Under the pieces are notes generated by a model. That model was given only the letters and a program-made list of their open reading frames with translations. It did no database searches and had not been told where the DNA came from. From NCBI GenBank assembly GCA_013151535.1, contig JAADIC010000155.1:1-29971 (forward strand): DNA of 29,971 bases. The letters run 5' to 3'. A program made the position numbers and the translations under genes. Below, piece by piece: positions 22,829 to 25,962 of this stretch; within the stretch, counting starts at the first letter, position 1; each line of letters starts with the position of its first letter. Origin of the DNA: Alphaproteobacteria bacterium. Its GTDB lineage: Bacteria; Pseudomonadota; Alphaproteobacteria; Rhodobacterales; Rhodobacteraceae.

Positions 22829-22873
22829 ATGAGAACCTGCACCCCCATTTGTGGCACCTGCATTATCTGCTGA
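22829..22873 (+). CDS. Putative leader peptide MRTCTPICGTCIIC (14 aa), apparently leaderless
   Basis: ATG AGA ACC TGC ACC CCC ATT TGT GGC ACC TGC ATT ATC TGC TGA. 4 Cys, 3 Ile and 3 Thr directly upstream of cysS-cimA. Below the ORF-track size cut-off. Confidence 0.75.
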   Translation: MRTCTPICGTCIIC

Positions 22874-22902
22874 AAATACTCAGCGGGCCGTTCTCTTGTT
22901 TT
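22831..22902 (+). promoter_or_regulatory. Attenuator-like RNA fold overlapping the leader peptide
   Basis: 3' arm TCAGCGG-GCC-GTTCTC (22880-22895) is complementary to CTGCTGA (22867-22873, includes the stop), GGC (22853-22855) and GAGAAC (22831-22836). It is followed by TTGTTTT (22896-22902). Confidence 0.55.
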
Positions 22903-22965
22903 CAAAACCATGACACAGTGATAGGCCTCGCCCAAGGGATTTGAGGGATAAACACGCGTGGAAAT

Positions 22966-25962
22966 ATGATGACCGAGATCAAGCTGTACAACACCAAGAC
23001 CCGCAAGAAAGAGCTGTTCACGCCACTGGATGCGAACGATGTGCGCATGTATGTCTGCGGCCCGACGGTGTATGACCGCGCCCATATCGGCAACGCGCGC
23101 CCGGTGGTGGTGTTTGACGTATTGTATCGGCTGTTGCGCCATGTGTATGAGGCGGAGCACGTCACCTATGCGCGCAATTTCACCGACGTGGATGACAAGA
23201 TCAACGCCAAGGCGGCCCAAACCGGGCGGTCTATTCGCGAGATCACGGATGAGACGATTGGCTGGTTTCTGGAAGACATGGGGGCATTGGGGGCGCTAGA
23301 GCCGGATAAGGCACCACGGGCGACCGAGTTTATTGCTGAGATGGTTGATATGATTGCGGAGCTGATTACGTCCGGCCACGCTTACGAGGCTGAAGGGCAT
23401 GTGCTGTTTGATGTGACGTCTTACGAGAAATATGGCTCACTTTCGGGCCGCTCAATCGACGATATGATCGCAGGCGCGCGGGTTGAAGTTGCGCCCTACA
23501 AACGAAATCCGATGGATTTTGTCATGTGGAAGCCGAGTGTCGGCGATCAACCGGGCTGGAAAAGCCCTTGGGGTTACGGCCGCCCGGGCTGGCATATTGA
23601 ATGTTCCGCCATGACCAAAGCGATCTTTGGCGAACGGTTCGACATCCACGGCGGCGGTCTTGATCTGGCCTTTCCGCACCACGAAAACGAAAAGGCGCAG
23701 AGCTGTTGTACGACGGGTGAGGATAGCTTTGCGCAGGTGTGGATGCATAACGAGATGTTGCAGGTTGAGGGCAAGAAAATGTCCAAGAGCTTGGGCAATT
23801 TCTTTTCGGTGCGGGAGTTGTTGTATCAGGGGGTGCCGGGCGATGTTATTAGGTTTGTGTTTTTGAGTACGCATTACCGCAAGCCGATGGACTGGACGGA
23901 GAAGAAGGCGAAGGAGGCAGAGGCGACGCTGCTAGGATGGAGAGCTTTAGTGAACTCTCAAATTGAAGACGTATCAACGGATATTGAAGGGAAAGTTCCT
24001 CCACCTGAAATAATTTGTGCGCTTGCGGACAACTTAAACACTTCATTGGCATTGAAGAATGTGAACGATTTTGCAAAAAGGGCCAAAAATGGAAGCGTTG
24101 GCGAAGCACGCGCTTTGGCCGAGGCAATGGCCTTCCTTGGGTTCGATCCATCTTGGGCGGGGGCATTTAGTGAGCTGCCGAGAATCGGAGTACCCAGCAA
24201 TTGTGACCCCAATACAATCGTTATCGTTGAGGACCTTTTGACACAAAGAAACGAAGCACGCAAAAAGGGCAATTTTAAGAGAGCGGACGCTTTAAGAGAT
24301 GGCTTCGCTGCACGCGTTTGCCGGAATGTTACGATGACCAAACAACACCTCTCCCTCTTCGACACTACCTTACGCGATGGCCAACAAACCCAAGGTGTTG
24401 ACTTCACCGCAGAAGACAAGACCCGCATCGCTTTGGCGCTCGACACACTCGGCCTTGATTATGTCGAAGGCGGCTGGCCGGGGGCGAACCCGACCGACAG
24501 CGACTTTTTCGACAATGCGCCCGCCCTCAAGACTGCCACTTTCACCGCTTTTGGCATGACAAAACGCGCCGGGCGTTCGGCGGAAAACGATGATGTGCTG
24601 GCGGCTGTTTTGAACGCCAATACCCCTGCGGTATGTCTTGTTGGCAAGACGCATGACTTTCATGTCACCACGGCGCTGGGCATCAGCTTGCCGGAAAACC
24701 TCGCCAATATCGCGCAGTCTTTCGCCCATATCAGCGCCCAAAATCGTGAGCCTTTGTTTGACGCCGAGCACTTCTTTGACGGCTACAAAGCCAATCCCGA
24801 TTACGCGCTGGAATGTCTGCACGCGGCTTATGACAACCACGCCAACTGGGTGGTTCTGTGCGATACCAATGGCGGAACCCTGCCGCATGAAATCCACGAA
24901 ATCACCAAGGCGGTGATCGCCAGCGGCATTCCGGGCGAGCATCTGGGCATTCACACCCATGATGATACCGGCCACGCCATTGCCAATTCACTGGCGGCTG
25001 TGATGGCCGGGGCGCGCCAGATTCAAGGCACGCTGAACGGGCTGGGCGAGCGCTGTGGCAACGCCAATCTTATCAGCCTGATCCCGACATTGATGTTGAA
25101 AGACCCCTCCGCCAGCCAGTTTGAAATCGGCGTGACCGAAGACGGCCTGCAATCCCTGACCAAGCTCAGCCGCATGCTCGACGACATCCTGAACCGTGTG
25201 CCCAACAAAACCACGCCCTATGTCGGGGCCAGCGCATTCGCCCATAAGGCCGGGCTGCATGCCAGTGCGATTGTCAAGGATCCCAGCACTTACGAGCATG
25301 TGGAACCCGATACGGTTGGCAATGAACGCGTTATTCCGATGTCAAATCAGGCCGGTCAGAGCAACCTGCGCCGCCGTCTGGAGGATGCTGGGATTGCGGT
25401 TGAAAAAGGCGATCAGCGGTTGGCCAATATCCTGAACGAGGTCAAAGCGCGCGAGGATCGCGGCTATGCCTATGACACCGCGCAGGCCAGTTTTGAGCTG
25501 ATCGCGCGGCGTGAGCTTGGCCTGCTGCCCGAGTTTTTCGAGGTCAAGCGTTACCGCGTCACGGTGGAGCGGCGACGCAACAAGCGCAATGAGGCTGTGA
25601 CCCTGTCCGAGGCGGTGGTGGCAGTGAAAATCGCCGGTCAAAAGGTGCTTTCGGTGTCCGACAGTCTGGATCTGAATGGCAAGGATAGCGGGCCGGTGAA
25701 CGCGTTGTCCAAGGCCCTCTCGAAAGATCTGGGGCCATATCAGGCCTGTATTGACGACATGAAACTGGTCGATTTCCGGGTGCGGATCACCGGTGGTGGC
25801 ACTGCAGCGGTGACGCGTGTTATCATCGACAGCGAGGACGGGCAGGGGCGGCGCTGGTCGACCGTGGGCGTGTCCGCGAACATCGTGGATGCCTCGTTCG
25901 AGGCGCTGCTGGATGCGATTATCTGGAAGCTGATCCGCGACGATCAAAAGGTGGCCCAATGA
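22966..25962 (+). CDS. cysS: Single 998-aa ORF: cysteine--tRNA ligase (about aa 1-456) fused in frame to citramalate synthase
   Basis: [60 protein letters not shown], then [17 protein letters not shown] continuing into MTKQHL with no stop. Start 22966 or 22969. Confidence 0.9.
24334..25962 (+). CDS. cimA: Citramalate synthase moiety (542 aa, LeuA-type), retains its own in-frame ATG
   Basis: [72 protein letters not shown]-terminal regulatory domain GPVNAL...[10 protein letters not shown]. Confidence 0.93.

Follow-up and report, generated by a model that had tools for sequence, protein, structure and literature searches.

A fused cysS–cimA frame

The stretch of DNA analysed here, called the window, is a contig of 29,971 nt (JAADIC010000155.1) from a Rhodobacteraceae metagenome-assembled genome (MAG; GCA_013151535.1). 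It carries a gene in which cysS, encoding cysteinyl-tRNA synthetase (CysRS), runs without a stop into cimA, encoding citramalate synthase (CimA). The open reading frame (ORF) at 22966..25962 on the forward strand consists of 998 uninterrupted codons. It specifies CysRS up to about residue 446, a linker of about 11 residues and a full citramalate synthase, the ATG of cimA lying within the fused frame at 24334. An original prediction, made from the sequence alone, had described an in-frame fusion. The lack of a stop in the 998-codon frame and the presence of both domain sets agree with it, and the +1 frame ends at an ATGA overlap (24334–24337), as was also described. The features of the locus are as follows.

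22829..22873 (+): Cys/Ile-rich leader ORF of the cysS–cimA operon, 14 codons (MRTCTPICGTCIIC, then a stop); a similar ORF is present in relatives
22884..22904 (+): GC stem and U-tract, terminator-like, following the leader ORF; the motif is kept in relatives
22966..23913 (+): CysRS catalytic part, residues 1–316, according to PF01406, the E. coli CysRS alignment and about 95% identity to the relative L116
23914..24300 (+): CysRS C-terminal helical module, residues 317 to about 445, hypervariable and with low GC content at third codon positions (GC3), according to E. coli residue mapping
24298..24313 (+): deletion joint, the breakpoint being placeable only to this stretch; CysRS homology stops at ...RDG(FA)
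24301..24333 (+): linker of about 11 residues, formerly the 5' untranslated region of cimA, carrying GGAA as a weak Shine-Dalgarno sequence
24334..25962 (+): complete citramalate synthase CimA, residues 457–998 and the stop, according to TIGR00977 and 93% identity to the free-standing CimA P0282

On the 998-residue protein, the Pfam models tRNA-synt_1e (18–318), HMGL-like (462–709), HCS_D2 (753–832) and LeuA_dimer (839–985) are matched in this order. The CysRS half matches PF01406 with E = 9e-115 and reaches 449.4 bits against the cysS equivalog TIGR00435 (cut-off 340), covering profile positions 1–449 of 466. The CysRS signatures HIGN (40–43) and KMSKS (271–275) are present, and the zinc ligands C31, C213, H238 and E242 correspond to E. 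coli C28, C209, H234 and E238. The CimA half scores 583.5 bits against the citramalate synthase equivalog TIGR00977 (cut-off 450), over positions 2–523 of 526, and all LeuA models stay below their own cut-offs on this half. It contains the motifs DTTLRDG (466–472) and HTH (663–665) as well as the C-terminal LeuA_dimer regulatory domain. The equivalog match suggests a specificity for pyruvate and acetyl-CoA, which would feed isoleucine synthesis. No frameshift is seen in either half of the fused frame.

Translation likely starts at the second ATG (22969). The resulting 997-residue form is the one on record, and an exact look-up found it on this contig only; the 998-residue form was not found. 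The 90% cluster of the 997-residue form also contains free-standing CimA proteins of 540–542 residues.

Loss of the CysRS tail

The alignment of E. coli CysRS (1LI5) to the fused protein stops at residue 441 of 461. Positions 450–466 of TIGR00435 are unmatched, and PF23493 (CysS_C) is matched only over profile positions 8–35 of 51 at 18.4 bits, under its cut-off of 23, compared with positions 8–47 and 30.7 bits for a same-genus relative. A complete C-terminal anticodon-binding domain, consisting of PF23493 and the final β-hairpin, is not present. All three comparisons support the earlier claim that the CysRS tail is absent. The lost tail was also sought on the other contigs of the genome, none of which encodes it.

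The lost part comprises the β-hairpin and a short terminal helix, that is, the last ~30 codons of cysS including ...KLEALK. The leading glycine of the hairpin is invariant in an alignment of 30 CysRS sequences. In an AlphaFold2 (AF2) model of the CysRS of L116, the closest intact relative, the mean predicted local distance difference test (pLDDT) value is 89.5, and the tail forms a hairpin (448–453 and 456–461) and a short helix with pLDDT 84–92. In the AF2 model of the fusion, the catalytic domain and the CimA barrel are predicted with confidence, the linker (447–457) is disordered with pLDDT below 50, and nothing takes the place of the hairpin.

The helix preceding the lost part is retained. 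Its residues R432, F437, D441 and R444 align with E. coli R427, W432, D436 and R439, which were targeted as the anticodon interface in an engineering study of 2026 (PMC13449415). The original prediction had placed an anticodon contact in the lost hairpin, but the four anticodon-interface residues map to the retained helix instead.

Unfused relatives and the extent of the deletion

As separate genes, cysS lies directly upstream of cimA in 17 genomic relatives (16 members of the genus or family, and L015), and the pairing reaches other families of the order and class. The CysRS proteins of the relatives have about 30 more residues after the helix ...AD.LR....A, with the pattern AGVxVxxxxxGxxxxLxxDFDPxKLEALK. 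In 49 further metagenomic loci where cysS adjoins cimA, the genes are likewise separate, and each CysRS extends 33 residues or more past this helix.

The nearest relatives, L116 (JGI Ga0675951_005838) and L119, are unfused. They share with the window the neighbouring genes and a near-identical leader peptide; their CysRS residues 1–316 are about 95% and their CimA 93% identical to those of the window. Unlike the window, they have CysRS proteins of 474 and 458 residues with full tail and stop, followed by palindromic-repeat spacers of 145 and 187 nt, and the C-terminal module is only ~30% identical. At the DNA level, the flanks align at 81–84%. Between them no similarity is detectable, and this segment measures 435 nt in the window (23913–24347), 639 nt in L116 and 627 nt in L119.

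The window is 190–205 nt shorter than L116 and L119, and 193–211 nt shorter by codon count than L016 and L017. This shortening spans the region from about cysS codon 317 to the start of cimA and is seen against every relative. About 0.2 kb has been lost, comprising the last ~30 cysS codons, the stop and the spacer, which in the genus bears a repeat. Since the tail, the stop and the spacer are lost, the CysRS frame runs through about 11 former leader codons into an intact cimA. A contig from a ~91%-identical relative, found in one public run, aligns to the window from 24302 onward only, which places the joint at about 24298–24313. The proposal that the fusion arose by deletion is therefore upheld by the 190–210 nt missing relative to every relative, and a deficit of this size also bears out the statement that a single-base change cannot restore the tail.

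Across relatives, the distance between cysS and cimA ranges from an ATGA overlap, present in three genera and with many metagenomic loci at −1 to −8, up to 364 nt. Such overlaps of the two genes are found in other genera of the family. Within the genus of the window, the genes are 115–364 nt apart. An ancestral translationally coupled pair, as had been proposed, is thus not what the deletion acted on, since in this genus the genes were separated by a spacer with a palindromic repeat and not coupled by ATGA.

At the ATGA overlaps of L025, L028 and L031, the terminal ...KLEAL(K/R) of CysRS is encoded by CTGGAGGC, which contains a GGAGG Shine-Dalgarno sequence about 10 nt before the cimA ATG. Part of the conservation of this peptide may come from dual coding as the cimA Shine-Dalgarno sequence. 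In L028 (genome G021), CimA apparently starts at the ATGA overlap and has a Gly/Pro-rich N-terminal extension of about 30 residues.

A rearrangement-prone junction

The spacer of the genus contains a GC-rich palindrome of about 90 nt (GGTCAGCGCCCGGCC...GGTCGGGCGCTGACC), located at L003:1380–1470 (genome G018), at L116:2888–2972 and in the spacers of L016–L027. This palindrome is repeated at dispersed sites, G018 having 17 copies and G005 and G010 five each, and compensatory changes occur between the copies. No full copy is found in the assembled genome of the window. An Rfam scan of the spacer element gave no match at the gathering level, nor any at E ≤ 1 beyond noise. With no Rfam match and an element that is multi-copy in genomes of the genus, the possibility that the spacer acts as a riboswitch or leader of cimA was rejected. 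In two loci from different JGI samples (L117:1–232 and L118:1–237), the right half of the repeat 5' of cimA is joined not to cysS but to an unrelated gene ending in ...AILRKTQDV and a stop. Either a true rearrangement took place there, or the repeat caused a misassembly.

To the left of the spacer, the CysRS module beginning at about codon 317 is hypervariable. Its identity between relatives is 30–38%, compared with 76–98% for the catalytic parts. In the window, the DNA of this module can be aligned to no relative, its protein identity to the fetched loci is at most 36%, and a word search with residues 325–449 returned no homologue at E ≤ 1e-5. The loci L014 and L015 have flanks that are 97.5–98% identical, with 514 and 707 unalignable nt between them. 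Modules that are only 30–38% identical despite flanks that are 98% identical imply recombinational exchange among very divergent alleles, as if the module were a cassette. In the window, GC3 is 0.45 in the C-terminal module and 0.71 in the catalytic part. A recent import of this low-GC segment specific to the window was considered and rejected, because 11 of 13 relatives share both the low GC3 and the hypervariability.

Rarity of the architecture and a second fusion

A phmmer search of 1.84 billion cluster representatives gave no fusion among the best 150 matches, the top match being a CimA of 542 residues. In a set of 5.8 billion proteins, both domain sets occur together in just two clusters besides this one, P0003 and P0122. 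A fused cysS–cimA occurs in none of 80 metagenomic loci, 24 relatives and 150 family genomes listed. The same architecture was not found across species as a conserved bifunctional CysRS–CimA family would have it, and the window fusion belongs to no such family.

The cluster P0122 represents a second fusion. It is a CysRS–CimA protein of 1034 residues from another Rhodobacteraceae lineage, present on 42 JGI contigs of up to 253 kb. The partial NCBI protein MBC7154977.1, annotated as citramalate synthase, is a record of this lineage, and a 98%-identical variant with the same joint is found in an NCBI MAG. In P0122, a complete CysRS including the hairpin and ...KLEALR is followed by the linker QGSPV and then by CimA; the stop and the spacer are gone. 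It resembles the window fusion in having the same genes in the same order, and in both natural fusions the joint is at the right edge of the variable cassette, in P0122 about 15 nt 5' of the cimA ATG. It differs in retaining the whole CysRS and in a strong internal Shine-Dalgarno sequence (−7.6 kcal/mol). As P0122 is 63% identical to the window protein, it is regarded as an independent event. L015 (GCA_050433985.1), a close relative of the P0122 lineage, has separate genes with a spacer of 212 nt. The presence of an independent fusion on 42 contigs indicates that the architecture is viable. The original prediction had called the architecture very unusual; its rarity is borne out, and uniqueness is not, given this second fusion with a complete CysRS.

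Other candidate fusions were rejected. P0003 (790 residues) comes from a long-read contig in which cimA and EamA are split and the CysRS tail is out of frame, and is a frameshift artefact. In L078 and L095, the long frames without a stop that lie 5' of cimA are out-of-frame readings of a GC-rich cysS. In G240, an open frame of 884 residues results from an N-terminal extension that happens to contain no stop; the CysRS tail and its stop codon are normal there, and cimA is separate.

Copy number of cysS and quality of the genome

The MAG consists of 375 contigs with a median of 6.5 kb and none below 3 kb; it is 83.7% complete with 3% contamination, and the window is the whole of its longest contig. 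Long ORFs fill this contig densely, with no sign of indel errors, and its other genes are intact. The names of the nearest proteins point to Rhodobacteraceae/Paracoccaceae. A second cysS had been suggested as something to look for. The search of the MAG, at its 83.7% completeness, gave a single match. Exactly one cysS is present in 24 of 26 relatives. Of 401 family genomes drawn as one per genus, 394 have a cysS match, nearly all of them a single one. The near-universal single copy in the family makes a second copy in the missing 16% unlikely. The genome also has an ordinary tRNA-Cys(GCA).

Leader, expression and pathway context

In 10 of 14 relatives, a Cys/Ile-rich ORF of 13–15 codons lies 75–100 nt upstream of cysS, and L116 and L119 have one too. 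The ORF is followed by the conserved terminator-like motif GCGGGCCGTTCTCT..TTGTTTTC (22829–22904 in the window, including the ORF; L016–L031 among relatives). A terminator scan likewise marks a terminator-like site at 22866–22887, followed by a T-rich tail. The Cys/Ile leader that had been noted ahead of the operon is thus confirmed and conserved, and no Rfam family corresponds to it. It looks like a dual Cys/Ile attenuator of an operon that joins a Cys synthetase to an enzyme of the Ile pathway. By the same scan, no Cys/Ile-rich leader ORF was found in L014 and L015, which stand for the 1034-residue fusion lineage and its unfused relative.

Scans between the two halves of the fused gene found no internal promoter or terminator, and there is no special RNA structure at the joint (z = +1.0). 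Pairing of the cimA start region with the anti-Shine-Dalgarno sequence is weak in the window at −3.5 kcal/mol, compared with −0.4 to −9.5 kcal/mol in relatives. The neighbours of the cysS part are an aminotransferase gene and cimA. The genome contains an ilvA-type threonine dehydratase, so CimA is not its sole route to isoleucine. Citramalate carries 80% of the isoleucine flux in Roseobacter denitrificans (PMC2749216).

Origin and function of the fusion

Taken together, it is moderately probable that the locus is a real, recent and sporadic deletion allele that yields a tail-less CysRS joined to CimA with reduced but sufficient CysRS activity. The cysS–cimA junction is rearrangement-prone, and the joint lies beside the position of the repeat spacer and at the edge of the hypervariable cassette. 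Imprecise recombination during exchange, or a repeat-associated deletion, would be the likely cause and the most economical origin. A transcript from the promoter of the Cys/Ile leader would then be translated into a CysRS–CimA polypeptide of about 110 kDa without the tail, and weak internal initiation at 24334 may add some free CimA. The fused enzyme probably still charges tRNA-Cys, at lower efficiency or specificity, because the catalytic core and the anticodon-interface helix are intact and no second cysS is expected. A CysRS engineered to lack its anticodon-binding domain has partial activity in vivo (PMC5389517). The major identity elements of tRNA-Cys are the anticodon and U73, and U73 alone confers cysteine identity on minihelices (PMC9976931).

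Several observations speak against this reading. The tail is kept in the CysRS of all ~66 relatives examined, with its glycine invariant, which argues that its loss is costly. In the AF2 model, the two remaining C-terminal helices have pLDDT 53–69, as opposed to 89–95 in the intact relative, a comparison weakened in that the alignment of the hypervariable part is thin and may account for the low values. The MAG is fragmented, and with no contigs below 3 kb a wild-type allele could have been dropped from it. Junction words were searched in the indexed public sequencing runs, which do not include the source run, and no run was listed; the only public run found (share 0.09) holds the relative mentioned above, ~91–95% identical, whose contig diverges upstream of 24302.

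A rival reading, unlikely but appreciable, is that the fused frame does not represent the genome of the population and is an assembly artefact or a minority variant. The assembler may have kept a rare deletion path because a dispersed repeat lies on the wild-type path, the join may be chimeric, or a single-base error may hide an ATGA-coupled pair. A repeat-free allele assembles more easily than the wild type, so that a minority variant may be favoured, and the window is the longest contig of a fragmented MAG. The spacer repeat is known to break or mis-join contigs of relatives, as L117 and L118 end or switch inside it. ATGA overlaps are common in the family, and the +1 frame ends exactly at one; the tail is otherwise universal and no independent run contains the junction. 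However, collapse of a repeat would not delete ~90 nt of unique cysS sequence, no long word is common to both breakpoints, and the other genes of the contig are intact. A one-base error would turn a fused pair into a coupled one with the tail still absent.

Improbable, by comparison with an artefact, is an adaptive bifunctional enzyme of the "Rosetta stone" type, in which tethering to the CimA dimer replaces the role of the tail and fixes a 1:1 stoichiometry under the Cys/Ile attenuator. It would fit a cysS–cimA pairing that is kept throughout the family and also in other families of the class, a pair that is often translationally coupled and lies under one Cys/Ile leader, and the persistence of the independent fusion through 2% protein divergence on 42 contigs. 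The near-total absence of fusions from the databases, metagenomic loci and listed family genomes described above speaks against it, as do the unfused closest relatives and the whole tail of the other fusion. In the AF2 model the linker is disordered and the hairpin is unreplaced. Nothing indicates a selected or conserved bifunctional enzyme.

A dead CysRS half, with an intact cysS in the unassembled ~16% and the ORF reduced to a CimA with a long N-terminal appendage, would make the loss of a universal tail cost-free and is allowed for by the completeness of 83.7%, but it is highly improbable in view of the single match in nearly all of the ~400 family genomes and of a catalytic part that is ~95% identical to that of L116, with all motifs intact and no decay.

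For the deletion allele itself, a stronger claim has a fairly small chance of being correct, namely that the sole CysRS of the organism is a working tail-less fusion and that the universally conserved hairpin is dispensable once the enzyme is tethered to a CimA dimer. In that case the two independent fusions would suggest a physical or regulatory partnership between charging of tRNA-Cys and the citramalate route, of which the common Cys/Ile attenuator and the frequent translational coupling already give a hint.

Comparison with known systems and significance

Compared with E. coli CysRS (PDB 1LI5, 1U0B), the window protein matches the catalytic core, the zinc ligands, the HIGH and KMSKS motifs and the helix with R427, W432, D436 and R439. 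Different from it, the window protein has no equivalent of residues 442–461, the final β-hairpin, and a second enzyme follows in the same chain. CysRS* of Desulfobacterales (PMC5389517) is a naturally occurring CysRS whose C-terminal part for tRNA binding is reduced, and it shows that such enzymes can work with a suitable tRNA. CysRS* is a second copy in which the domain is missing altogether and the CP1 motif is altered, and its substrate is a special tRNA-Cys(UCA); the window encodes a sole copy from which only the hairpin is gone. The window CysRS does not have the hallmarks of CysRS*, that is, a second copy without the whole domain beside selB*/selC*; it is a single copy with the helical part retained.

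If the fusion is real and the only cysS, nature has run an experiment on an essential enzyme, which would show how much of the anticodon-binding domain can go and whether a synthetase can bear covalent attachment to a metabolic enzyme. Along with the better-supported P0122 fusion, it flags cysS and cimA as a tightly linked pair of Rhodobacterales, adjacent, often overlapping and under one Cys/Ile leader, and both fusions together flag the junction as a rearrangement hot spot. If it is an artefact, it is a warning that, where a spacer bears a repeat, a rare deletion allele can become the path that assembles best in a MAG. The surrounding biology, comprising the conserved Cys/Ile leader, a cysS–cimA pair that is often translationally coupled and a CysRS whose C-terminal module behaves like a cassette, is maybe more interesting than the fusion.

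Covalent joining of a synthetase to another domain by gene fusion is also seen in the Mycoplasma penetrans MetRS with N-terminal ancillary domains (PMC13215547). The other synthetase fusions are lineage-fixed and keep the synthetase whole, whereas the window fusion is sporadic, its synthetase is truncated and its partner is an enzyme of amino-acid biosynthesis. The CysRS proteins P0041 and P0092, of 892–919 residues, also have the GluRS catalytic domain PF00749. They may be gltX–cysS fusions or read-through calls. In L112, gltX lies directly upstream of cysS–cimA.

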